From a virus (Duplodnaviria; Heunggongvirae; Uroviricota; Caudoviricetes): 12,645 bases of DNA. Shown in pieces: positions 1,755-12,645 of this stretch (its first letter is position 1; every line of letters begins with the position of its first letter). The stretch is taken from IMG/VR virus record IMGVR_UViG_2778261591_000019; one strand, given 5' to 3'. The notes below the pieces were generated by a model. The model was not told the DNA's origin and did no database searches. It saw nothing but the letters and a program-made list of their open reading frames with translations. A program made the position numbers and the translations under genes.

Positions 1755-2345
1755 TTAGCATGATTCAGGGGAAACCCCAATATTAAATATGAGTGACTCT
1801 CCTGAATCAGCATAATAATGTAATATTATTGACTTACGTTGTTTTCTTGCTTCGTAGAATAAACGCTCTTGCGGCGATAATTTGTGAAAACTGCCGGATG
1901 CACAATATATGTTTTTTAACTTTTCGCTGGTTGCTTTTATTGTATCTTCTGAGATGTATTTTAGGTATTTATCCGTATAGATGTTGCTACTATAAGAAAT
2001 TAATGTTTTGCTGTTGTTGTGATGTATTGTATTTTTATCGTTGAAGTCTGTATTTTTATTTACTGTCATTAGGTTTTTAATGATTACATGTAATGCAATA
2101 GTCTCCCCATCATCAATTCCATATTTGATGTCATAGTCAGTATATTTATTTGTTATACCGCTTCCTGATAGCGGCACTATGTACTCTGAGAAAAATGAGT
2201 TTGCCGCGTGACCATCAAGAGCAATAGCAGTTTTTTTGTGGTAAAAATAAAACAATATTGAGAGAGTCAAAATAATAGCGACGCCTAATGCAACCTTTAA
2301 TATAGATATGGTTTTCAAAATATCGCTCCTTGTTGTAACATACAT
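1755..2345 (-). CDS. Hypothetical single-pass membrane protein in an AT-rich island; candidate superinfection-exclusion-type moron
   Basis: About 200-codon ORF in visibly AT-rich DNA, where long ORFs are unlikely by chance. Predicted N-terminal TM helix (ISILKVALGVAIILTLSILFYFY) followed by an N/K/Y/S-rich soluble domain. Start ambiguous (ATG 2345 or TTG 2366), no clear SD. Sits where sieA lies in P22-like phages. Confidence 0.5.
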   Translation of the reverse strand: MYVTTRSDILKTISILKVALGVAIILTLSILFYFYHKKTAIALDGHAANSFFSEYIVPLSGSGITNKYTDYDIKYGIDDGETIALHVIIKNLMTVNKNTDFNDKNTIHHNNSKTLISYSSNIYTDKYLKYISEDTIKATSEKLKNIYCASGSFHKLSPQERLFYEARKQRKSIILHYYADSGESLIFNIGVSPESC

Positions 2346-2378
2346 CAGTAATGTGGCGTTTTTCAATTGTATTAAAGA

Positions 2379-2408
2379 CGTGTAATATGTACACGCCTTT
2401 TGTTCTTC
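2379..2408 (-). terminator. Weak hairpin plus T-rich tract between the mnt-like gene and the membrane-protein gene
   Basis: CGTGTA-ATATG-TACACG stem-loop (2379-2395) flanked by T-rich sequence; only a 6-bp stem. Confidence 0.25.
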
Positions 2409-2840
2409 CTATTCAGGTATTTCAATTCCAAAACCATCTGCATCCCATGAGTTTTCACAGATGATGTAACCTAGTTCATTGAGCTTATTAAATGTTTTTT
2501 CAAAGATGATCTGGTAATCATTATCTGCAAGTGATTCCAGTTCAAGGTCATTAAGGTTTATATAAAAACTTGTATGTCCAAGTGTTATTTTCTTATTGAT
2601 TTCATTAAAAGTTCTTTTGAAAATAATATTTGATATTTCATGCCGTGCATTGTTTGCAATAATTTTTGCTTCATAAGCAGAAATTACGTCATCTTCATGA
2701 ATATCTTTCAGAAAGCTGGTGTCAAGACGTTGTACTATTTCAGCGTTCATTGAGCGCTTATTGGCTTTTGCAGAAATTTCTATTTTTTCTTTTACTTCAA
2801 CGGGAAGTCTGATCCTTAGTTGTGGATCTTCTCTGCTCAT
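2409..2840 (-). CDS. mnt: Mnt-like ribbon-helix-helix repressor with an extra C-terminal domain of about 60 aa
   Basis: N-terminus MSREDPQLRIRLPVEVKEKIEISAKANKRSMNAEIVQRL matches the P22 Mnt RHH motif (DP..F..R.P.EV.EK....A.AN.RSMN.E..Q). ATG at 2840 preceded by a GGTGA SD. Divergent from the arc-like/ant genes as in P22 immI. 143 aa versus 83 aa for P22 Mnt. Confidence 0.75.
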   Translation of the reverse strand: MSREDPQLRIRLPVEVKEKIEISAKANKRSMNAEIVQRLDTSFLKDIHEDDVISAYEAKIIANNARHEISNIIFKRTFNEINKKITLGHTSFYINLNDLELESLADNDYQIIFEKTFNKLNELGYIICENSWDADGFGIEIPE

Positions 2841-2870
2841 GTTCTTCACCAAATATTGAGTTACTTGCAA

Positions 2871-2960
2871 TGATTGAAGTATGCCTCACCGTGTGCTTGA
2901 CATCAATGACGCACGGTGTGACAATTGTTTTGCCCCACGGTGGGGCTAAGGAGATATGAA
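2871..2960. promoter_or_regulatory. Divergent promoter/operator region (Pant-like promoter with RHH operator half-sites)
   Basis: -35 TTGACA (2897-2902), 17-nt spacer, -10 GACAAT (2920-2925), reading toward the arc-like gene. Heptamer CACGGTG at 2912-2918 and 2936-2942 and its reverse complement CACCGTG at 2887-2893, about 24-25 bp apart. SD TAAGGAG at 2947-2953. Confidence 0.45.
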
Positions 2961-3128
2961 ATGCAAAAAGCAAAAGAGATGTGTCAACGACGAGTTCGTT
3001 TTCCGGACGATGTGAAGTTAGCTATTGAAAGAAATGGCGAAAAAGAATGCCGAAAGTTCAATACAGAGATTATCTATCAGCTGAGGAAAGTGTATGGACT
3101 CACTGGTGAGAAGAATAGCGTGGCATAA
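2961..3128 (+). CDS. arc: Arc-like ribbon-helix-helix repressor (55 aa)
   Basis: ATG 2961 with strong SD (TAAGGAG, 7-nt spacing). 55 aa, similar in size to P22 Arc (53 aa). RVRFPDDVKLAI...NTEIIYQLRKV fits the RHH beta-strand/helix pattern. Immediately upstream of the antirepressor gene. Confidence 0.65.
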   Translation: MQKAKEMCQRRVRFPDDVKLAIERNGEKECRKFNTEIIYQLRKVYGLTGEKNSVA

Positions 3129-3200
3129 AACAGCGAAGCCCAACGGTGGCCAGACCGTCAGGGCTTCAGTATCGTAAAACTACGTATAGGAATTAACGAC
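3127..3200 (-). ncRNA. Predicted sar-like small antisense RNA across the antirepressor RBS/start
   Basis: Minus-strand promoter inside the first codons of ant: -35 TTGATA (complement of 3230-3235), 17-nt spacer, -10 TATACT (complement of 3207-3212). Minus-strand terminator: stem GAAGCCC/GGGCTTC (3135-3141 with 3161-3167) followed by a T-tract (complement of 3127-3134). Predicted length about 70 nt, as for P22 sar. Confidence 0.35.
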
Positions 3201-4145
3201 ATGACGAGTATAGCAACAGCGCTATCTACTATCAACGTGCCATTCCACGGCGCAGAACTTTATGTTGTCAATCACAACGGAGAACCGTACACCCCAATGA
3301 AACCTATCGTTGAAGGCATGGGTATGGATTGGGCTTCACAGTTTACGAAAATGAAGCAGCGGTTTAAAACCTGCATTGTGAAAATCACAATGCAGCTTCC
3401 TGGGGATGAACAGCGCCGTGAGATTATTTGTTTGGCACTTCGCAAACTTGCTGGCTGGTTGCAAACCATCAGCCCTAACAAAGTCCGCCCTGAAATCCGC
3501 GACAAGGTAATCCAGTATCAGGAAGAGTGTGACGATGTTCTCTACGAGTACTGGACTAAAGGCCATGTGGTTAACCCACGCAAAGCTAAAAAGGCGTTGC
3601 CGGGTAAAATAACCACTGAACAGCAGGAAGCCATTAAACAACTCGTCATGAGTCGCGGTCAGTCTCTGCCAAAAGAAAAACAGGCTAAGGCGATGATCAC
3701 CATGTGGTCGTCACTGAAATCTCATTTTGGCTGTTCGTACAAAGAAATTGATGAAGATCAATTCGCCGAAGCGTTGTCTCTTGTTGCTCGGGTTCCGCTT
3801 GAAGGGGAGCATCTCCCTGCTGGATCTGCATCAGAGAATGATGAAGTGGCAGTCAAGATGTTAGATGCGCTTCGTGAGGCAATTAAAACACAGACAAAAT
3901 GTTATGGTTATCCGCTGAAGCCCGGCTACCGCAGTCTGATTCATTCGCCGTCTGGTGTTCTCGGCCTGACGGAGAACTCACTGCTGATGAATCTGCTTAA
4001 CCAGTTACAGGACGACGGGCACGATGTATCGGGCGCGGCGGCGGAGCTGACCACCATGTTCTGCTACATCGTCGGTGTGAGCAAGTGCCTGCGTGATATC
4101 CAGACCCACGCGGAGTACATCAACGACAAGGCAGGGTTCTTCTGA
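3201..4145 (+). CDS. ant: Phage antirepressor (Ant); N-terminal AntA-type domain plus a C-terminal module shared with two other genes in the window
   Basis: 314-aa ORF directly after arc in the immI arrangement, with ATG 3201 and AGGA upstream. N-terminus VPFHGAELYVVNHNGEPYTPMKPIVEGMGMDW resembles antirepressor N-domains. C-terminal 77 aa are near-identical to the C-terminus of the 5121-5813 gene. Confidence 0.75.
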   Translation: MTSIATALSTINVPFHGAELYVVNHNGEPYTPMKPIVEGMGMDWASQFTKMKQRFKTCIVKITMQLPGDEQRREIICLALRKLAGWLQTISPNKVRPEIRDKVIQYQEECDDVLYEYWTKGHVVNPRKAKKALPGKITTEQQEAIKQLVMSRGQSLPKEKQAKAMITMWSSLKSHFGCSYKEIDEDQFAEALSLVARVPLEGEHLPAGSASENDEVAVKMLDALREAIKTQTKCYGYPLKPGYRSLIHSPSGVLGLTENSLLMNLLNQLQDDGHDVSGAAAELTTMFCYIVGVSKCLRDIQTHAEYINDKAGFF

Positions 4146-4169
4146 CAGAACGGCGGCACAGGGATGTGC
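3915..4169. repeat. Inverted repeat, left copy (3' end of ant plus about 24 bp downstream)
   Basis: Reverse complement of 5099-5353 matches 3915-4169 at about 95% identity by hand alignment (about 12 mismatches over 231 coding bp); similarity continues past the stop codons (CGGCGGCACAGGGATGTGC). Confidence 0.85.
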
Positions 4170-4196
4170 AAAACGGAACTATCGTGACATGTCACA

Positions 4197-4220
4197 GGCC
4201 GCTTTCGCGGCCTTGTTTTT
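4197..4220 (+). terminator. Rho-independent terminator downstream of ant
   Basis: GGCCGC-TTTC-GCGGCC hairpin (4197-4212) followed by TTGTTTTT (4213-4220). A 12-bp perfect palindrome GTGACATGTCAC lies immediately upstream (4184-4195). Confidence 0.6.
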
Positions 4221-4260
4221 AACGAATGCCACCGCCGCCCGGGCGGGAATCCGCAGACAC

Positions 4261-4281
4261 AAAAAAGCCCGCAACGCGGGC
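4261..4281 (-). terminator. Rho-independent terminator for the minus-strand toxin-like operon
   Basis: GCCCGC-AAC-GCGGGC hairpin (4267-4281) immediately after the minus-strand stop at 4282-4284, followed on the minus strand by TTTTTT (complement of 4261-4266). Confidence 0.6.
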
Positions 4282-4827
4282 TTATTCCTTCCATTTATCA
4301 GAAAAAAGATCTTCTTCTAAAGGCATTGGTTCTGTTTTTGTTTTCTCAAAGAATTGATAACTGATAGTGATTGCTTCCTCTTTAAACTCTTCTTGCTCAG
4401 TTATGTTGTGGGCATCTGCGTCAACAAAAAACATAACCAGCGCATCACGATTGTGATTTACCGAATAAACTAAAAAGCAATCACTTGTTGGTATGCATTT
4501 TACTTGCACAGACGCTATATTTTTCCATGCATCCCAAGATGATTTTTTACCAGTGTGTTTTTTATCACTATCTTCTGGAATATAGTCTTGGTTATCGACA
4601 TGAGTATGCCTGACATTTAGTTTAAGCATTTCTGTCGGACGAGCAAATGCAGCATCTTTACCAAGAGATGGATGGTATCCCGTTTTCCAATACTGGGTAA
4701 AGGCATCAGATACTTTCTTCAGCTCAAGATCAGATGCACAAAGGGCCGAGAAATTTTGCGTATGCAATACTCGACCCTTATATCTGACAATTTGATTTTT
4801 ATCATTCTGCGACGCAGACGAACTCAT
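4282..4827 (-). CDS. YafO-like toxin candidate (181 aa)
   Basis: ATG 4827 with AAGGA SD. By-eye similarity to E. coli YafO as I recall it: GKDAAF..P..LKLNVRHTHV versus GRDALY..P..IKFERVAHIHL, and FLVYSV...ALVMFFVDADAH versus HLVYCQ...WLLIAILKPEPH. The YafO sequence is from memory and unverified. Confidence 0.55.
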   Translation of the reverse strand: MSSSASQNDKNQIVRYKGRVLHTQNFSALCASDLELKKVSDAFTQYWKTGYHPSLGKDAAFARPTEMLKLNVRHTHVDNQDYIPEDSDKKHTGKKSSWDAWKNIASVQVKCIPTSDCFLVYSVNHNRDALVMFFVDADAHNITEQEEFKEEAITISYQFFEKTKTEPMPLEEDLFSDKWKE

Positions 4828-4981
4828 AATTTTCCTTATTGTTACGAGAATCAAAGAAAGCTCGGGATACGCGACTTGCGTGATCTTTTGTCATAGTAAC
4901 TTTTACGTACTCTACGCTTCCATTGAAAGAACGTCTTGCGGCAGCTTGCGCTCTACGCATCTGCAATTTTTCGTTTCGCAT
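4802..4981 (-). CDS. Small basic ORF (59 aa) overlapping the start of the toxin-like gene; candidate cognate antitoxin/regulator
   Basis: Not in the supplied ORF track (below size cutoff). ATG 4981 preceded by GAGG SD; stop TGA at 4804-4802 overlaps the downstream gene start by 26 nt. Promoter-like -35 TTGGTT (complement of 5031-5036), 17-nt spacer, -10 TGTAAT (complement of 5008-5013). Product MRNEKLQMRRAQAAARRSFNGSVEYVKVTMTKDHASRVSRAFFDSRNNKENYEFVCVAE. Confidence 0.35.
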   Translation of the reverse strand: MRNEKLQMRRAQAAARRSFNGSVEYVKVTMTKDHASRVSRAFFDSRNNKENYEFVCVAE

Positions 4982-5041
4982 GACATTACCTCATATCTCA
5001 TAAGTTCATTACACGGATTAATAAAAATGAAACCAATCCGT

Positions 5042-5056
5042 TTACCCTTGAGGTAA
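5042..5056. promoter_or_regulatory. TTACC-N5-GGTAA palindrome immediately upstream of the -35 of the toxin-like operon promoter
   Basis: TTACCCTTGAGGTAA read directly; same palindrome family as 6080-6096, 6173-6189 and 7292-7308. Confidence 0.35.
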
Positions 5057-5098
5057 TAGTACGCTATTCACCTGCAATCTGTACAGAATTATTTAAAG

Positions 5099-5353
5099 GC
5101 ACATCCCTGTGCGCCGCCCGTCAGAAGAACCCTGCTTTGTCGTTGATATACTCCGCGTGAGTCTGGATATCACGCAGGCATTTGCTCACACCAACGATGT
5201 AGCAGAACATGGTGGTCAGCTCCGCCGCCGCGCCAGATACGTCGTGCCCGTCTTCCTGTAACTGGTTCAGCAGATTCATCAGCAGTGAGTTCTCCGTCAG
5301 GCCGAGAACACCAGACGGAGAATGAATCAGGCTGCGGTATCCGGGCTTCAGTG
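5099..5353. repeat. Inverted repeat, right copy (3' end of the second antirepressor gene plus flanking bases)
   Basis: See left copy; the two copies encode nearly identical C-terminal peptides KPGYRSLIHSPSGVLGLTENSLLMNLLNQLQ(D/E)DGHDVSGAAAELTTMFCYIVGVSKCLRDIQTHAEYINDKAGFF on opposite strands. Confidence 0.85.
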
Positions 5354-5813
5354 GGGCGCTGTAGGTTTTGTTCTCTATCTTCATTGCCTGCATTACTGCT
5401 GACGCCGTGGCGTTGGCTACCTGGTCGGCAACCATCTTTATGCGTTCTTCCTGCGGGAGCGAGTTTTTAATGTAACTTCCAGTGCGGCGGATCTGAGGAA
5501 GAACCTCACCTGTAACCCATTCAAGAAATCTGAATGCTCTCGTTCCCTCTGTCATTGCCTCTTTGCAACGCAGAATAAGGATGTAGAGACCTGATTCTGA
5601 AACGATGGATAGTTCTTGTATTCCACCAGGGGTCTGTATTGAATACAGCCCCTTTTTGTTCCAGCCTTTTTTATCAAGTTTTCTCGCTTGTGTAACATCA
5701 ATATTCAAAGCATTGCACACATCTTTGGTGACAAACCAAGGTTCTCCGTCAATCATGAACATACGGATCTGGCAGGATGACTCAAAGGAAAAGATGGAAG
5801 GTTTGGTATTCAT
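5121..5813 (-). CDS. Second antirepressor: Bro-N-type N-terminal domain plus the shared antirepressor C-terminal module (230 aa)
   Basis: ATG 5813 with AGGTG SD. N-terminus IRMFMIDGEPWFVTKDVCNALNI...SESGLYILILRCKEAMTEGTRAFRFLEWVTGEVLPQIRR has classic Bro-N/antirepressor motifs. C-terminus as in ant. Confidence 0.8.
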   Translation of the reverse strand: MNTKPSIFSFESSCQIRMFMIDGEPWFVTKDVCNALNIDVTQARKLDKKGWNKKGLYSIQTPGGIQELSIVSESGLYILILRCKEAMTEGTRAFRFLEWVTGEVLPQIRRTGSYIKNSLPQEERIKMVADQVANATASAVMQAMKIENKTYSAPLKPGYRSLIHSPSGVLGLTENSLLMNLLNQLQEDGHDVSGAAAELTTMFCYIVGVSKCLRDIQTHAEYINDKAGFF

Positions 5814-6079
5814 GGCGATCACCTTTGTAGTTAGGTTAATCACCACCGCTGAGACCAATCAGATGGTGGTGAACTGTGCAGAGTTGGTCTTACCGGCTAC
5901 AAAGGAACCCGGCGCACCTTTCGGTGCCCCCACACAGCCCACCATAGAATAGGTGCGCTTTACACATAAAAAAACCGCTTATGCGGCATATGTGCCTCTG
6001 TAGTAATCCGGGAGACCAATCCCGGCACTGGATTTTGCCAGTGCCCGGTTACTATGGCACAGGATGAGTGCGATGTAAA

Positions 6080-6096
6080 TTTACCGTAAAGGTAAT
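6080..6096. promoter_or_regulatory. ATTACC-N5-GGTAAT palindrome (distal site upstream of the 6209 gene)
   Basis: ATTACCGTAAAGGTAAT read directly. Confidence 0.35.
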
Positions 6097-6172
6097 GATA
6101 AGCGCTGAGAAATATCAAAATCAACCGTATTTGGTTGATGGAGTTTAATGCTTGATCACCTGAAAGCAAGAT

Positions 6173-6189
6173 ATTACCTTTAAGGTAAT
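6173..6189. promoter_or_regulatory. ATTACC-N5-GGTAAT palindrome (proximal site, about 20 bp upstream of the 6209 start)
   Basis: ATTACCTTTAAGGTAAT read directly; preceded by ATCACCTGAAAG (6155-6166), which recurs at 7292-7303. Confidence 0.35.
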
Positions 6190-6208
6190 GTTATTGTGAG
6201 GAAAAGCA

Positions 6209-6937
6209 ATGGAAGTTTTCTGGATAGTTGTTGGTGTGGTTGCGGTGATTATTTATGTCCTTCACCAGAACAAGACTAAGATCTCTGATCGCACGGTCGT
6301 TAATCATAACAAAACGATAAAGACCGAAGATGGGGAGATAACGATTAATCGTACACAGGTGATAGAACACACCTCTACTCAGTTTCAAAAAACTGGAGGT
6401 AATGCGCCTAATATTTCCGCACCTCCTGCTTATGATAGTGAGGTAATCCAGACATATTATAAACAGCAGGAGTTAGCAAAAGAGAGGCAACTGATTCAGC
6501 CAAAGCCATTTACAGCAGAGCTTCCACCTGGAGTGTCAACGCGTCCGGCATATCATGGAAGATTCCCTGGTGATGACATATCGTCTCAGTCACCTAAAAA
6601 AGCACCTCAGGCAGTATCAGAGTCAGCAAGAATACCTTCTGTATCGCCGTCAAAAGAAGAATCAGCTAACAGAGTTTCAAGTGGCCGCAAGCAGTGTTTG
6701 CGATGCAGAATAAACCTTCCATATGAAAAATTCCGGAAATCGTCAAAAAATCCAGATGGATTGACTAAGTGGTGTGCAAGGTGTCTCGATGGCCCAAAGA
6801 ATACACGTCATATGAAGTGGTGCCCAATTTGTAATGTCCGCAGAAAACGAACCAGCTTTTATCCTAATAATCAAAATGCGGATGGTTTAATGGCATGGTG
6901 CAAAACGTGCTGGGACGAGCACAAAGCGAAACGATAG
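6209..6937 (+). CDS. Membrane-tethered protein with two tandem C-x2-C-x22-C-x2-C zinc-ribbon motifs (242 aa); function unknown
   Basis: ATG 6209 with GAGG SD. N-terminal TM helix (VFWIVVGVVAVIIYVL), S/P/Q-rich linker, then CLRC-x22-CARC and CPIC-x22-CKTC, each with a conserved P...N.DGL..WC core. Confidence 0.7.
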   Translation: MEVFWIVVGVVAVIIYVLHQNKTKISDRTVVNHNKTIKTEDGEITINRTQVIEHTSTQFQKTGGNAPNISAPPAYDSEVIQTYYKQQELAKERQLIQPKPFTAELPPGVSTRPAYHGRFPGDDISSQSPKKAPQAVSESARIPSVSPSKEESANRVSSGRKQCLRCRINLPYEKFRKSSKNPDGLTKWCARCLDGPKNTRHMKWCPICNVRRKRTSFYPNNQNADGLMAWCKTCWDEHKAKR

Positions 6938-6960
6938 GCCGCTCTTGCGGCCTTTTCTTT
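6937..6960 (+). terminator. Rho-independent terminator after the zinc-ribbon gene (possibly bidirectional)
   Basis: GGCCGC-TCTT-GCGGCC hairpin (6937-6952) plus TTTTCTTT; same stem sequence as the ant terminator at 4197-4212. Confidence 0.6.
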
Positions 6961-7216
6961 ATGTAGTTTGTTTTCGTAATTGTTCGGCACAATAGTCGAG
7001 ATGTGTTTGCAGATCCTGCATAGACATCTGTGAGCTGGTGACGTAGTTAATCAGTGCAGTCAGTTCGGCAAGTGGGCCATCGACATTAAATCCATCCTTA
7101 TCGAGATCCCGGAGTAATTTCATCAAGTGCGATCCCTCCACCAGTGACCTGACGCCTCCCGGCGTGTGAATCCTTTCGGTAAATCCCTCTTCCAGTGGAT
7201 AGTGATACTGCTGCAT
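6959..7216 (-). CDS. Stand-alone antirepressor C-terminal-module protein (85 aa)
   Basis: ATG 7216 with GGAG SD. IHTPGGVRSLVEGSHLMKLLRDLDKDGFNVDGPLAELTALINYV...DLQTHLDY aligns with IHSPSGVLGLTENSLLMNLLNQLQDDGHDVSGAAAELTTMFCYI...DIQTHAEY of both antirepressors, about 45% identity by eye. Confidence 0.7.
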   Translation of the reverse strand: MQQYHYPLEEGFTERIHTPGGVRSLVEGSHLMKLLRDLDKDGFNVDGPLAELTALINYVTSSQMSMQDLQTHLDYCAEQLRKQTT

Positions 7217-7291
7217 CTTATCTTCTCCATGCAATAACTGTATAAATATACAGTAGCAAATAATTTGTTTGCTATCCAGCACGTTTTGCGA

Positions 7292-7308
7292 ATCACCTGA
7301 AAGGTAAT
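7292..7308. promoter_or_regulatory. ATCACC-N5-GGTAAT palindrome in the divergent promoter region between the Ant-C-like gene and the tailspike
   Basis: ATCACCTGAAAGGTAAT read directly; a further half-site TTTAAGGTAAT at 7348-7358. Confidence 0.35.
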
Positions 7309-7411
7309 ATCTGTTCGTATTTATGGGTTATCTATCCATATATGGTTTTTAAGGTAATAGAATAACCGGATATGCGGCGCAACGGGTGCTGCGACTATCT
7401 GGAGATTTAAC

Positions 7412-9406
7412 ATGACGGTCTCAACCGAAGTTGACCACAACGAATATACAGGTAACGGTGTTACAACTACGTTCCCTTATACCTTTAGGATTTTCCAGAA
7501 ATCTGATCTGGTGGTGCAGGTGATTGACCTTGACGAGAATATCACTGTGCTGGCTCTTGATACTGATTACGCAGTCACTGGTGCGGGAGGCTATAGCGGC
7601 GGTAATATAATACTGTCGAAGGCATTGGCCAACGGTTATCAGATCTCTATATCACGAGAGCTCCCGGTTACTCAGGAAACAGATCTGCGTAATCAGGGTA
7701 AATTCTTTGCAGAGGTGCATGAGGATGCGTTTGATAAGCTAACGATGCTGATTCAACAATGTCGTAGCTTGTTTCGTCTTGCACTTTGCAAACCATCAAG
7801 TATTGCAAACTGGTACGACGCTTTAAATAACAGGATTAGAAATCTTAAAGATCCAGAAAGCCCTCAGGATGCAGTAACTTTAAGTTATCTTGAAGGGTAT
7901 ATAGAAGGTGGTGATAGTACTTTGCGTCCAGATATTACAAGAACTGGAGCTGTAGGGAATAATATACAGCAAGCCATAAACTTATCTATAGCCGGTCAAA
8001 CTGTAATTACGATGAAAGATGATGAAATTGTATCTTCATTGTTAAATGAATATGGTGTTGAAATTGAGCAACGCAGGGGGCGTGTATTTAATACAGAAGG
8101 TGTTCAACTAACAACGTATTCTGACCCTCGTTCCCGTTTTGTAACTGGTGACCAATATCTTAATTATGTTATTAGCAAGATGATAAAAGCAGATGGCGTG
8201 GATAAATCACAGAAAACATATATTTTGTGGTCTGGTGACTCCACGATTGTTGGTGTTAACTCTGAATTATGGCCACCAGCAACTATTGCTGATTTTTATG
8301 CAAAAAGGTATGGAATTATTGATGTAAAAAATACATCGTTAGGTCATTCAGGTAAAACTCTATACGAATGGGGTAATTGGTATATTGATCAGGAATGGTC
8401 TGTTTTTTCTGCTGCTGATTTGATTGTTTTACGATGGGGAATTAACGATCCATATTATGGTTATACATTGGATCAAGTAAAAGACGCATTAGATAGAGGT
8501 CTTTCCAAGTTACGAAATAACAAATCAGTTTCCCAGCAATCAATTATTATCATGTCCCCAAACTCAACATCAGACACACCAAACGGACGTGATGAAAAAT
8601 GGTATGAACAGTTAACAGCCGTACTTAGAGCCAAAGCAAAACAATATAAGTGTATGTTTTTTGATACTTACGGTATGTGGCAGGATTCGCGAGGATCTGC
8701 TGGTAACTGGCTTGACGACCCTTATGGCGATGGCAGGGGAATACACCCAAACTCAACATTTAGCGCACAGATACATAAATTATTATTTGAATATATTTAT
8801 GGACCGTGTGCTGTTATAAATGGGAGTAGCAACCTTTTTTCTAACAATGGTTCTTCCATACAATTCATCAATAGCTCATATCCGCCAAATACTTTTCACA
8901 TGGGGACTTCATGGTGGAGAACAAACCCTGATGATGCTTCTTGGCCTCTTGACGGTGTTATTCAGGTTGATAGATTTGTTGACGGAATAGTAGTACAAAA
9001 AAATTATGGTTATTCTTCAGATAATGCTCGCGTTTGCTTAATGAGGATTGGAAGGATTAGTGAGAATACATGGAGTACATGGCGAGGTAATCAGTATGAT
9101 ATGAGTGGCATATTGCAAAATGGTTGGTCTGTAGGTGAGGCAAGAAGTGGAACATATCAGAAATCAGCCGAGGGCGTTGTTACTTTATCTGCTGTTTTAA
9201 CAGGTGGAAATACATCTGTTGGCACAGTTATTATGGTATTGCCAGAAGGGTTTAGACCAAAGAATGATATTTCTTATATTCCATCAGGTACTGATTCATC
9301 GGTTGCCCTCATTAATATACTTTCAAACGGTAAAGTTACAATTCAGAGCTATCCGTCAGGAACAGTTCTTGTAATTAATACGACATTCCCTTCATTAGTT
9401 AATTAG
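7412..9406 (+). CDS. Tailspike/tail fibre with conserved N-terminal particle-binding domain, central SGNH (GDSL-type) esterase domain and C-terminal beta-rich receptor-binding region (664 aa)
   Basis: ATG 7412 with GGAG SD. SGNH blocks: WSGDST (G275-D276-S277), LGHSGKT, WGINDP, GRGIHPN. N-terminal about 120 aa (NEYTGNGVTTTFPYTF...DTDYAVTG) resembles tail-fibre/tailspike anchor domains. Size and domain order fit an O-antigen-deacetylating tailspike. Confidence 0.8.
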   Translation: MTVSTEVDHNEYTGNGVTTTFPYTFRIFQKSDLVVQVIDLDENITVLALDTDYAVTGAGGYSGGNIILSKALANGYQISISRELPVTQETDLRNQGKFFAEVHEDAFDKLTMLIQQCRSLFRLALCKPSSIANWYDALNNRIRNLKDPESPQDAVTLSYLEGYIEGGDSTLRPDITRTGAVGNNIQQAINLSIAGQTVITMKDDEIVSSLLNEYGVEIEQRRGRVFNTEGVQLTTYSDPRSRFVTGDQYLNYVISKMIKADGVDKSQKTYILWSGDSTIVGVNSELWPPATIADFYAKRYGIIDVKNTSLGHSGKTLYEWGNWYIDQEWSVFSAADLIVLRWGINDPYYGYTLDQVKDALDRGLSKLRNNKSVSQQSIIIMSPNSTSDTPNGRDEKWYEQLTAVLRAKAKQYKCMFFDTYGMWQDSRGSAGNWLDDPYGDGRGIHPNSTFSAQIHKLLFEYIYGPCAVINGSSNLFSNNGSSIQFINSSYPPNTFHMGTSWWRTNPDDASWPLDGVIQVDRFVDGIVVQKNYGYSSDNARVCLMRIGRISENTWSTWRGNQYDMSGILQNGWSVGEARSGTYQKSAEGVVTLSAVLTGGNTSVGTVIMVLPEGFRPKNDISYIPSGTDSSVALINILSNGKVTIQSYPSGTVLVINTTFPSLVN

Positions 9407-9441: not shown

Positions 9442-9557
9442 AAAACACAAATGATGATTTTGTTGTTTACTTATAACATAATAATTCATATATGGTTTGG
9501 TTTTGATGGTGTTCTACCAGAAACTGGAGATTTGATGAATGTTAAATGGTGGTTGAT

Positions 9558-9962
9558 ATGTCATTTCAAATAACTAATGATCATGTAAATCAGTATCTTA
9601 CTGTTGGTTCTCTTGCTGCGGTTATTGGTGGGACTCCACCTGAAGTTGCTTTGGGTTCACTTGCCGGAGCTGTGATTTTTGTTACCTCTGCTGTCGAGTA
9701 TCCAATCCGTCGTCGTGTTCTTCTGTCAGTGCTCAGCTTTATTTGCGGCCTTCTCTTTTACAAACCAGCAGCATCAATTCTTATTGGCATAGCCAGCCTG
9801 ATCCCTACCATCACACAGGACTCTTTTGAGAAAGGGATTGTTTTCTCTGCTGGCGCATTCGTGTCAGCAATTGTCGCTGTGCGTATTGGTATCTGGCTCT
9901 ATCACCGTTCCGATAATCCACGCGAATTAATGCCGGGGAGAAAAGACGATGGTAACGCATGA
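9558..9962 (+). CDS. Putative holin (multi-TM small membrane protein), possible dual start
   Basis: First gene of the lysis cluster, with about 3-4 predicted TM segments. ATG 9558 has a GGTGG SD; an in-frame upstream ATG at 9546 gives MVVDM..., a dual-start arrangement like that of lambda S. Confidence 0.55.
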   Translation: MSFQITNDHVNQYLTVGSLAAVIGGTPPEVALGSLAGAVIFVTSAVEYPIRRRVLLSVLSFICGLLFYKPAASILIGIASLIPTITQDSFEKGIVFSAGAFVSAIVAVRIGIWLYHRSDNPRELMPGRKDDGNA

Positions 9963-10257
9963 GCTTTTTTTACTTATCACCAATGCGGTTATTTGTACTG
10001 GCATAGCAATTCGCGTTGTCACTTTCCAGCGTAACGGATCTCAACATCGAAGATGGGGTGGGTGGATTGCTTATTTCCTGATTGTTGCTGCTGCGAGTAT
10101 TCCAGTTCGTGTTGTTTATGCAATCTGGTTACGCACGCCAATGGCTGTGGATTTATCTGAGGTCATTATCAACGCTGTCATGCTTGCTGCGGTTCTTAAA
10201 ACTCGCGGTAACGTCGTTCAGATTTTCAAAATAACGAGGTCTAAATATGGAGATTAA
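9949..10257 (+). CDS. Second small membrane protein of the lysis cassette (holin/antiholin-like, 3 TM, 102 aa)
   Basis: ATG 9949 with GGAG SD; overlaps neighbours at both ends; three hydrophobic segments. Confidence 0.5.
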
Positions 10258-11355: not shown

Positions 11356-11510
11356 CATGGCATTTTTCATGGTACTGATTTCCGGTGACGGTATATAAAA
11401 CGGTACCAGAAAAATGAAGTTTTGGAAAAATGTTATCACTCAATTGGTTATGATTGTCGTAAATAATTGAGTGGGAATGATTTTAATCCCTGCACTATGA
11501 ATGAACAAAA

Positions 11511-11574: not shown

Positions 11575-12114
11575 TTAATTAAACCAGCTGTCCGATTTGT
11601 TCTCTTCTGCTTTGCCCACGCTTTTCATCAGATCGCGACCGCCTTCAGTCATATTTCTGTTGGCGTCAGCTTCAGATTGCACCACATCGGTTTGCGCAGC
11701 TTTGTGCTTCAGTTCCTGATCGATAAATTCGTTTTCTCGCTTAACGCGGGCTTCTTCTTTCGCCAGCGCCAGTTTTTGTTTCTGAATCTCTAAGCTGCGT
11801 AGCTCATCTTCATAACTTTGATCGCGTTTTTTGTCCGCAGAGGCTTCGGCGTCCAGTTTATCCTGACGAGCTTTCTTATTTGCTGCTGCCGTTGCCGCTC
11901 TTTTGTTAGCGGCGGCCTGGGCATTTGCGCGACGTTGCTTCTCTTGCTGGATTTCCCTGTTGCGCTCCGCGACCCATTCGTCATGCTGCCTTTGCTCTTC
12001 ATTTTTACCTTGCTGTTCAGCTTCTGCTACAGCAGAGAGTTGATCCTGCAATGATGAGGCGATAGCCGGATAGCTTAAGGAGGCCAAGATGGCGCAAAGA
12101 AAAACTTTCTTCAT
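11575..12114 (-). CDS. Secreted coiled-coil protein (signal peptide; Ala/Lys/Glu/Gln-rich), 179 aa
   Basis: ATG 12114 with strong AGGAGG SD. Signal peptide MKKVFLCAILASLSYPAIA; remainder strongly helical/charged. No family recognised. Confidence 0.6.
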   Translation of the reverse strand: MKKVFLCAILASLSYPAIASSLQDQLSAVAEAEQQGKNEEQRQHDEWVAERNREIQQEKQRRANAQAAANKRAATAAANKKARQDKLDAEASADKKRDQSYEDELRSLEIQKQKLALAKEEARVKRENEFIDQELKHKAAQTDVVQSEADANRNMTEGGRDLMKSVGKAEENKSDSWFN

Positions 12115-12129
12115 GACTCCTCCTGATTA

Positions 12130-12645
12130 TTAGCTCTTTTCAGGACATTTAGTATTTGGCTGAATACGCGTTTCGTTATACGTTGTGGTAATAACAACGG
12201 CTAAACCTGTCGTAAACTGGCACTCTTTACCCACCTGGGTAGAGGTATACACTTTGGTGCCTTCCTTATATGTTAAAGAAACACCTTCCACTAAGGTTTT
12301 ATCATTCACCATAGAACCCGCTGCCGCGCCTACAGCTCCGCCGCCAACTGCCCCTGCCGTCGTTCCGGAATTGCTGCCAGAACCGACGTTGTGGCCGATA
12401 ACACCGCCAGCGACTGCGCCAATAAGCGCGCCGAAGGCTTGTGCGTTCCGTTTATTTTGGGAGTTGTCTACGGCAACTTTTGCGGGAAGAATGGAAATAA
12501 TATTAACGGTTTTAGTTTCTTGTTTGGTATTCAGTTGATCGGTTTGATAAACATCGGCGGCATGATCGTCAGCATTTGACTGGCATCCTGCCAGAGTGAA
12601 TGACGCTAACATTGCCACAGGCAGAAGACATTTTTTAAATTTCAT
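12130..12645 (-). CDS. Outer-membrane lipoprotein with glycine-zipper domain (YcfJ/SlyB/Pcp-like, 17-kDa-antigen family), 171 aa
   Basis: Lipobox LAGC after a signal peptide. GALIGAVAGGVIGHNVGSG...GAVGGGAVGAAAG closely resembles the YcfJ/SlyB glycine-zipper core (from memory). ATG at the window edge (12645). Confidence 0.7.
   Translation of the reverse strand: MKFKKCLLPVAMLASFTLAGCQSNADDHAADVYQTDQLNTKQETKTVNIISILPAKVAVDNSQNKRNAQAFGALIGAVAGGVIGHNVGSGSNSGTTAGAVGGGAVGAAAGSMVNDKTLVEGVSLTYKEGTKVYTSTQVGKECQFTTGLAVVITTTYNETRIQPNTKCPEKS

Follow-up and report, generated by a model that had tools for sequence, protein, structure and literature searches.

The window and its palindromes

The DNA analysed here (the window) is the whole 12,645-nucleotide stretch of the IMG/VR virus record IMGVR_UViG_2778261591_000019, in which a 17-bp palindrome with the consensus ATTACC-N5-GGTAAT recurs in the intergenic regions of several accessory genes. 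The window showed 95.6% identity to Escherichia phage TL-2011b, an epsilon15-like podophage, and its gene order matched that of phiV10, which is likewise epsilon15-like. An attR attachment core (attgagtgggaatgatt, 11468–11484), identical to the attP/attB reported for phage vB_EcoP_ZX5, is followed by host yfgI/yfgH sequence (11575–12645), which identifies the window, as judged from its sequence, as the right arm of an epsilon15-like Escherichia coli prophage; the immunity region lies beyond the window. The closest complete prophage in the E. coli collection has guaA and yfgI as its neighbours and is 99.3% identical across 4900–7450, and related DNA was detected in 544 of 5426 complete E. coli genomes. 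The genes concerned are an Mnt/Arc-type region with a P22-type antirepressor gene, a cassette of a 59-amino-acid (aa) open reading frame (ORF) and a YafO-type toxin gene, a BRO-N gene preceded by the isrK and C4 RNAs, a zinc-ribbon gene, a small SPC32H-type antirepressor gene (ant) and a tailspike gene (Table 1).

Four near-identical palindromes had been pointed out in a first-pass annotation of the window, and all four were recovered (sites A to D), each with zero or one mismatch to the twelve specified bases. When TTACC-N5-GGTAA was searched for at no more than one mismatch, exactly four matches were obtained in the window against a mean of 0.24 in 200 dinucleotide-preserving shuffles, none of which reached four. 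All four lie between genes, against an intergenic share of about 15% in the phage part of the window (P about 5e-4). The region 1755–4300, comprising the Arc-domain gene, the sar RNA and the P22-type ant, contained no match even at two mismatches, in agreement with the earlier observation that the palindromes were not seen in the mnt/arc control region or in the remainder of the window. Two copies with two mismatches (9901–9917 and 9976–9992) were found inside holin-region coding sequence, with similar sequences in the same places in relatives; these are probably conserved coding sequence and not operators.

The lesser repeats that had been listed alongside the palindromes fared less well. The direct repeat (G/A)ATCACCTGAAAG, matching at 12 of 13 positions, is present at 6154–6166 as reported, with its second copy at 7291–7303, one base from the position first given. 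The hexamers reported as half-sites at 6155–6170 and 7348–7358 do exist but are individually insignificant, since isolated GGTAAT/ATTACC hexamers occur in 18 copies in the window. The former belongs to a degenerate site (6155–6171) which might act as a weak auxiliary site; in relatives, tandem sites at a comparable distance of 17–18 bp are seen before terS and at OR. In the latter (7342–7358), GGTAAT is the sole half present, and it was rejected as a Rep half-site in favour of a reading of this hexamer as −10-region sequence of the probable tailspike promoter block described below.

Table 1. Features of the window and corresponding elements of related phages (window coordinates unless a genome is named)
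Feature	Position	Strand	Sequence and remarks
Putative operator A	5041–5057		TTTACCCTTGAGGTAAT; upstream of minus-strand 59-aa ORF and YafO-type toxin cassette
Putative operator B	6080–6096		TTTACCGTAAAGGTAAT; head of minus-strand isrK-C4-BRO-N module
Putative operator C	6173–6189		ATTACCTTTAAGGTAAT; perfect palindrome; 20 bp upstream of zinc-ribbon gene
Putative operator D	7292–7308		ATCACCTGAAAGGTAAT; between ant (minus) and tailspike gene (plus)
Degenerate site	6155–6171		Left half only (ATCACC); 18 bp from site C; overlaps −35 TTGATC of zinc-ribbon promoter
Putative sigma-70 promoter, site A	5056–5085	minus	−35 TGTACA (5085–5080), 18-bp spacer, −10 TACTAT (5061–5056)
Predicted isrK promoter, site B	6051–6079	minus	−35 TTTACA (6079–6074), 17-bp spacer ending TG, −10 CATAGT (6056–6051)
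Second predicted promoter, site B	6095–6124	minus	TTGATT-18-TATCAT; −10 fused to site B, start point inside it
Putative zinc-ribbon promoter, site C	6152–6180	plus	−35 TTGATC (6152–6157), 17-bp spacer, −10 TACCTT (6175–6180)
Putative ant promoter		minus	−35 TGGATA (7278–7273, within invariant block), −10 TACTGT (7255–7250)
LexA box	7238–7253		CTGTATAAATATACAG; near-consensus; conserved in seven phages; overlaps putative ant promoter
Late-type tailspike promoter block (probable)	7336–7363	plus	CCATATATGG-TTTTTAA-GGTAATAGAAT; invariant in seven phages
Arc-domain (Mnt-like) gene	2409–2750	minus	Domain match
Small arc-like ORF	2961–3128
sar RNA	3132–3199	minus	Rfam, 45.2 bits
P22-type antirepressor gene	3201–4145		P22_AR_N
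59-aa ORF and YafO-family toxin gene	4282–4981	minus	Cassette
BRO-N antirepressor-like gene	5121–5813	minus	Bro-N match, E 2e-13
C4 antisense RNA	5862–5949	minus	Rfam, 78.6 bits, above gathering score
isrK small RNA	5968–6044	minus	Rfam, 74.7 bits, above gathering score
Zinc-ribbon gene	6209–6937	plus	242 aa
Small antirepressor Ant, SPC32H-type	6959–7216	minus	85 aa; PDB 5D50 chain E 'Anti-repressor protein', E 5e-48, residues 2–85 aligned
SGNH-type tailspike gene	start 7412	plus
62-bp operator pairs, TL-2011b (L003)	5171/5233, 8226/8288
62-bp operator pairs, phiV10 (L004)	31952/32014, 35069/35131
62-bp operator pairs, epsilon15 (L007)	32554/32616, 35906/35968
62-bp operator pairs, Tyrion (L006)	34194/34256, 37264/37326
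Late-type element, TL-2011b (L003)	14875, 39270
Late-type element, phiV10 (L004)	3308, 24738
Late-type element, epsilon15 (L007)	2988, 24751
Late-type element, L008	3231, 24828
Late-type element, Tyrion (L006)	4025, 26454

Distribution of the motif in related phages

The comparison covered seven complete relatives, namely TL-2011b, phiV10, Tyrion (Enterobacter), epsilon15 and SPC32H (both Salmonella), BUCT711 (Klebsiella) and the closest E. coli prophage. In a census of all 5-mer hyphenated palindromes with gaps of 0–9, TTACC-N5-GGTAA ranked first in all seven, with 8–11 exact copies each; at no more than one mismatch to the twelve specified bases, 8–12 sites were found per genome of roughly 40 kb. 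A matrix built from 72 family sites has TTACC and GGTAA invariant, with a variable, A/T-rich 5-bp spacer, and an alignment of site D from seven phages likewise showed invariant half-sites around a variable spacer. The position equivalent to site B is occupied in TL-2011b and Tyrion, and in phiV10 with two mismatches, while one of the 12 sites of SPC32H lies between ant and tsp.

In the closest prophage, 10 of the 12 sites are intergenic though intergenic DNA makes up only 9% of it (P = 2e-9); the remaining two fall within the first 80 nt of the terS annotation, a gene that other records start further downstream. This longer terS, as given by PGAP (L005, 30885–31559) and in the phiV10 record (41–715), runs upstream across two tandem operators, while in the epsilon15, SPC32H, Tyrion and TL-2011b records the gene starts only after both; the longer versions probably begin too far upstream. 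Site density was 12 in 39.3 kb of prophage against 1 in 111 kb of host DNA, a roughly 34-fold enrichment. This figure, together with the intergenic bias, answers the objection that the motif might occur at background frequency, and the conservation in seven relatives answers the one that it might not be shared by related prophages.

In TL-2011b, the sites flank rep (5306–5890), a repressor gene of the helix-turn-helix (HTH) type. Those at 5171 and 5233 separate the early-left genes from the 3′ end of rep, and those at 5945 and, weaker, 5993 lie between rep and a divergent cro-like gene. Further sites at no more than one mismatch are located at 8226, 8288 and 14818 and, just before terS, at 11589 and 11607; a copy with two mismatches at 134 lies upstream of int. 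Arrays flanking the Rep-family repressor gene, in an arrangement like OL and OR, were found in all seven relatives; the window stops short of this immunity region. Across the complete relatives the motif stands ahead of the early-left, early-right, replication/nin-like, terminase, tRNA/portal, lysis and integrase regions. The regulon confined to accessory genes that the first-pass annotation had proposed is not borne out by this distribution, in which the motif also flanks rep and stands before most transcription units.

Many of the operators are paired, being 62 bp apart at OL and in the nin-like region and 17–18 bp apart at terS and OR. In the four genomes examined, the 62-bp pairs (measured centre to centre; Table 1) bracket a TTGACA promoter in the early-left and nin-like regions, and in the nin-like pair the downstream operator shares bases with the Shine-Dalgarno sequence (GAGGTAAAtcATG). 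The 62-bp spacing hints that a single Rep tetramer may hold the two operators together. Integral helical phasing was not consistent among the pairs (62, 93 and 17–18 bp).

Position relative to promoters

In 56 of 144 site-orientations of the family, operator position 2 was also the last base of a good −10 element, defined as a hexamer with A2, T6 and at least four of six matches to TATAAT, against a background of 13% among hexamers ending in AT. Full −35/−10 contexts in three registers were detected in 47 of 128 site-orientations, compared with a rate of 0.5% per position. Family examples are TTGACA-17-AATCAT adjoining TACC at the early-left region and TTGACA-17-TACCTT at the divergent tRNA/portal promoter of five relatives.

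Similar arrangements were predicted in the window (Table 1). At site A, the final two bases of the putative −10 are operator positions 1–2, the operator spanning about −8 to +9, and at site C the putative −10 of the zinc-ribbon promoter coincides with operator positions 3–8. Site B abuts the −35 of the predicted isrK promoter, whose predicted start near 6044 is the first base of the Rfam isrK match. Site D precedes the putative ant −35 by 14 bp and, on its other side, the late-type palindrome CCATATATGG by 27 bp. Transcription is predicted to begin near 5050, 6044 and 6088 on the minus strand, near 6187 on the plus strand and, for the late-type tailspike promoter, near 7367–7370. The earlier description of the sites as an operator for a dimeric DNA-binding protein is in keeping with these data, as they are conserved, non-random, situated in promoter regions and consistent with recognition by a symmetric HTH protein.

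Several other identities were considered for the palindromes and set aside. They are not P22 immI (Mnt/Arc) operators, being absent from the mnt-arc-ant control region, and a lambda-type CI operator was ruled out by the hexamer spacing of 5 bp, not 3, and by the lack of autocleaving repressors among the solved structures that the Rep of the relative matched at E ≤ 0.01. As terminators or RNA structures they would have AT-rich arms of only 5–6 bp and a spacer that varies without compensation, and the Rfam matches lie beside the sites and not on them. The LexA box pattern CTGT-N8-ACAG fits none of the four. A site for a host transcription factor was rejected because the motif is about 34-fold rarer in the 111 kb of host DNA; to our knowledge, no E. 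coli factor has an ATTACC-N5-GGTAAT consensus.

Rep as the probable regulator

In the RefSeq record of epsilon15 (NC_004775.2), seven such 17-mers are annotated as 'protein_bind, repressor, lysogeny'. Site D is positionally homologous to one of these annotated repressor sites, which lies at 19895–19911 and separates gp19/ant from the tail fibre gene. Sites A to C have no epsilon15 counterpart; epsilon15 and SPC32H lack the whole stretch matching about 4221–6935 of the window, so these three sites sit in cassettes missing from epsilon15.

The regulator, which the first-pass annotation had given as unknown, is most likely the prophage repressor, to which the epsilon15 record assigns the sites; the closest prophage carries a homologue of the SPC32H repressor Rep (PDB 5D50 chain A 'Repressor', E 3.5e-42). 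Among solved structures, SPC32H Rep (5D50 and 5D4Z) was its only match at E ≤ 0.01, with no autocleaving repressor of the lambda CI or LexA type. Rep (gp10 in TL-2011b, phiV10p40 in phiV10) is a protein of roughly 195 aa with an N-terminal HTH DNA-binding domain, encoded about 30 kb away in the relatives and outside the window. Its overall identity falls to 43% across the seven phages while the N-terminal NLVNRW is invariant, which parallels the invariant half-sites of the operators. The Ant encoded in the window is about 88% identical to the crystallised SPC32H Ant. SPC32H Rep is reported to form a tetramer on palindromic sites, with DNA-binding pairs drawn from different dimers, and tetrameric Ant to bind it and break this tetramer (PMC9638917); a tetramer of this architecture fits the frequent pairing of the operators.

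From these observations the four palindromes are very probably operators of the prophage master repressor Rep, of the epsilon15/SPC32H type. The kind of element is a known one, the epsilon15/SPC32H Rep operator, to which the window adds new instances. No paper defining these operators was found in a full-text literature search on the motif and on Uetakevirus, phiV10, TL-2011b and SPC32H operators, a search whose scope did not take in the primary epsilon15 and SPC32H papers; the phage ZX5 paper merely speculated on a PL operator.

A number of points weigh against this assignment. The repressor sites of the epsilon15 record are probably themselves predictions, so that Rep binding at these exact sequences is drawn from database annotation and inference, and the rep gene of the prophage to which the window belongs is deduced from relatives, outside the window. 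All seven genomes, from four host genera, share one operator specificity, hence no co-variation of repressor and operator is to be seen. The promoter positions and the direction of regulation are likewise predicted: those at sites A and C match the consensus at 8 of 12 positions, below the 9 of 12 set as threshold in the general promoter scanner, and were found only by a custom scan in fixed operator register. Site D overlaps no convincing core promoter, site B, centred at about −44 relative to the start of isrK, would suit activation as well as repression, and a Cro-like protein could occupy the same sites.

The ant control region and a probable late-type promoter element

The LexA box upstream of ant (Table 1) suggests how Rep could be relieved. 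An SPC32H-type Ant combined with a LexA box would imply that SOS induction proceeds by way of the antirepressor and not by repressor cleavage. It may also be relevant that operator D lies upstream of the LexA-controlled ant promoter, as Rep–Ant positive feedback arising there may render induction irreversible.

On the tailspike side of this region, the GGTAAT at 7353–7358 is invariant in the seven relatives as part of GGTAATAGAAT, with CATATATGGTT preceding it. The block conforms to CATAT(A/G)TGGTT-N7-TA(A/T)(A/G)A(T/A/G), lacks a −35 hexamer and includes the perfect palindrome given above. This element was found upstream of the portal and lysis operons in relatives (Table 1) and of the tailspike gene here; a further copy at 9487–9520 of the window stands before the lysis genes. 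By its sequence and placement, CATATrTGGTT-N7-TAnnAn is probably a late, activator-dependent promoter type, for which a gp49-like regulator, encoded immediately ahead of terS, would be a candidate activator. No description of this element was found.

Proposed mechanism and alternative explanations

Under the proposed mechanism, one ATTACC-N5-GGTAAT site would be recognised by two Rep N-terminal domains acting as a pair, and in the lysogen bound Rep would shut off the sigma-70 promoters leading into three accessory cassettes. At site A the operator would be fused to the −10 from which the 59-aa ORF and YafO-type toxin gene are transcribed; at site B it would abut the isrK −35 and cover the start of the second promoter, heading isrK-C4-BRO-N; and at site C it would contain the −10 of the zinc-ribbon promoter. 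The role of site D is uncertain, as it might provide extra repression of ant, and with it Rep–Ant positive feedback at induction, or might serve as an anchor for a Rep tetramer. During an SOS response, cleavage of LexA would allow Ant to be made, Ant would strip Rep from the DNA, and the whole set would be derepressed with the rest of the phage.

The same operators could instead be used by another phage regulator, such as the Cro-like product of the gene divergent from rep (a homologue of epsilon15 gp39) or an early activator, which would tune expression in the lytic phase and not maintain repression in the lysogen. There is an OR-like region between rep and a small divergent gene, the Cro and repressor proteins of lambdoid phages share operators, and activators are often located at positions like those of site B, at about −44 with respect to isrK, and of site D, which lies ahead of the ant and tailspike promoters alike. 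This is nevertheless unlikely to be the primary role, since the epsilon15 record assigns the sites to the repressor, the conserved N-terminal HTH of Rep parallels the conserved half-sites, and most sites overlap a −10 or a start point, which is a repressing position. Such a protein would in any case be compatible with Rep binding and would merely add a second ligand. A dedicated dimeric regulator of the toxin-like operon, the zinc-ribbon gene and the Ant/tailspike region would account for the confinement of the motif to accessory-gene intergenic regions within the 12.6-kb window. It is highly improbable in view of the identical motif carried by relatives at the immunity, replication, terminase, portal/tRNA, lysis and integrase regions, which lie mostly beyond the coverage of the window, and of the epsilon15 annotation of the motif as a repressor site.

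Recombination offers a further explanation, in which the 17-mers serve primarily as joints for cassette exchange and have no regulatory role. Three different two-gene cassettes are found behind operator A, with the breakpoint at or inside its left half, and the junction of the zinc-ribbon cassette is about 10 bp from operator B. Invariant half-sites with free spacers are typical of protein recognition, though, and the sites are held at constant distances from −10 and −35 elements and also occur at OL/OR, where there is no mosaic joint; this explanation is very unlikely, and the joints are more simply seen as a by-product of the operators being the sole conserved sequence there. That the palindromes are an artefact of chance or of AT-rich promoter composition is hardly credible: the 18 isolated hexamers in the window show that single halves come easily, but four full sites were reached in none of the shuffles, the motif is enriched roughly 34-fold over host DNA and it is conserved over phages of E. 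coli, Salmonella, Enterobacter and Klebsiella.

Cassette mosaicism at the probable operators

In many E. coli prophages, homology to the window ends at 5037–5044, the left edge of operator A. Two of these prophages carry different two-gene cassettes behind a complete operator (L010, 3797–4516; L011, 3864–4520). The right half of the operator and the adjoining promoter DNA are shared among the alternative cassettes, and the left half and spacer are cassette-specific. The variable slot lies between a conserved gene for a 53-aa membrane protein and the BRO-N gene, and three unrelated two-gene cassettes were seen in it. As the operator is kept in front of all three, each cassette in the slot is preceded by what would be a Rep operator. 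In phiV10 and Tyrion, the segment 6107–6958 is missing; it comprises the zinc-ribbon cassette together with an operator, a promoter and a terminator belonging to it, and the junction of this cassette is about 10 bp from operator B.

A broader proposal, in which the operators double as docking points for cassette exchange, site D provides Rep–Ant feedback and the late-type element is an undescribed promoter class, can be put forward only tentatively and as a whole appears doubtful. An incoming cassette joined at operator A beside the shared promoter may in this manner be wired automatically to the master repressor.

Neighbouring genes and further observations

Three antirepressor systems are adjacent in this one prophage, namely the P22-type, the P1/Gifsy-type (BRO-N) and the SPC32H-type Ant. 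The isrK and C4 RNAs stand in tandem as the leader of the BRO-N gene, making up a P1 immI/Gifsy-1 IsrK-type module in an epsilon15-like prophage.

The zinc-ribbon gene is bracketed by its own operator and a strong terminator (6936–6953). Its 242-aa product consists of a hydrophobic N-terminal segment (MEVFWIVVGVVAVIIYVL), a Pro/Ser-rich linker and repeated C-terminal CxxC...WCxxC pairs; the only Pfam signal, Stc1, was below threshold. Within this cassette, a perfect 7-bp inverted repeat (ATCAACC-GTATTT-GGTTGAT, 6120–6139), unrelated to ATCACC, overlaps the −35 of a minus-strand promoter. On that strand it was scored as resembling a terminator, and it could also be bound by a protein.

Implications

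As the probable operator of the prophage's own master repressor, the motif calls for no new regulator to be sought. Should the assignment to Rep be correct, the YafO-type cassette, the isrK-C4-BRO-N module and the zinc-ribbon gene would be silent in the lysogen and switched on with the lytic genes. The accessory cassettes would then not be 'morons' expressed in the lysogen, and their functions would have to be tested during infection or induction and not in resting lysogens. Since such prophages are so common among E. coli genomes, a simple 17-bp matrix can be used to annotate their promoters. The three adjacent antirepressor modules also lend themselves to work on the integration of induction signals.

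Comparison with known systems

Epsilon15 carries the same 17-bp palindrome, with three sites to the left of its repressor gene and others before terS, gp3/portal and the RuvC-like resolvase gene. One difference concerns site D, where the half-site of the E. coli copy reads ATCACC and not ATTACC. The Rep–Ant lytic switch of SPC32H was reportedly described by Kim and Ryu in 2013 and by Kim in 2016, with Rep inactivated by an antirepressor and not by self-cleavage. The window likewise has an Ant with a LexA box at its promoter, and the closest prophage has a Rep homologue, but overall identity between the E. coli and SPC32H Rep proteins is only about 43%, and SPC32H lacks the two further antirepressor modules carried here.

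The C1 protein of phage P1 is a master repressor with operators scattered genome-wide, one of which, Op51, lies ahead of the c4-icd-ant (immI) operon; the P1 operators are asymmetric 17-mers. The present system likewise has dispersed operators, one of them (operator B) heading a C4-antirepressor operon, isrK-C4-BRO-N. C1 is unrelated to Rep and its operators are unrelated in sequence, and P1 is therefore an analogue and not a family member. The OL and OR operators of lambda are likewise 17-bp, partly symmetric sequences on both sides of the repressor gene that overlap the −10 and −35 of divergent early promoters, and the lambda half-site TATCACC resembles the ATCACC half-site of site D. The hexamers are, however, 3 bp apart in lambda and 5 bp apart in the Rep operator, and the lambda operators are confined to two arrays whereas those of Rep are spread genome-wide. 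The LexA-like autocleavage domain of lambda CI has no counterpart in Rep, whose inactivation reportedly depends on an antirepressor.

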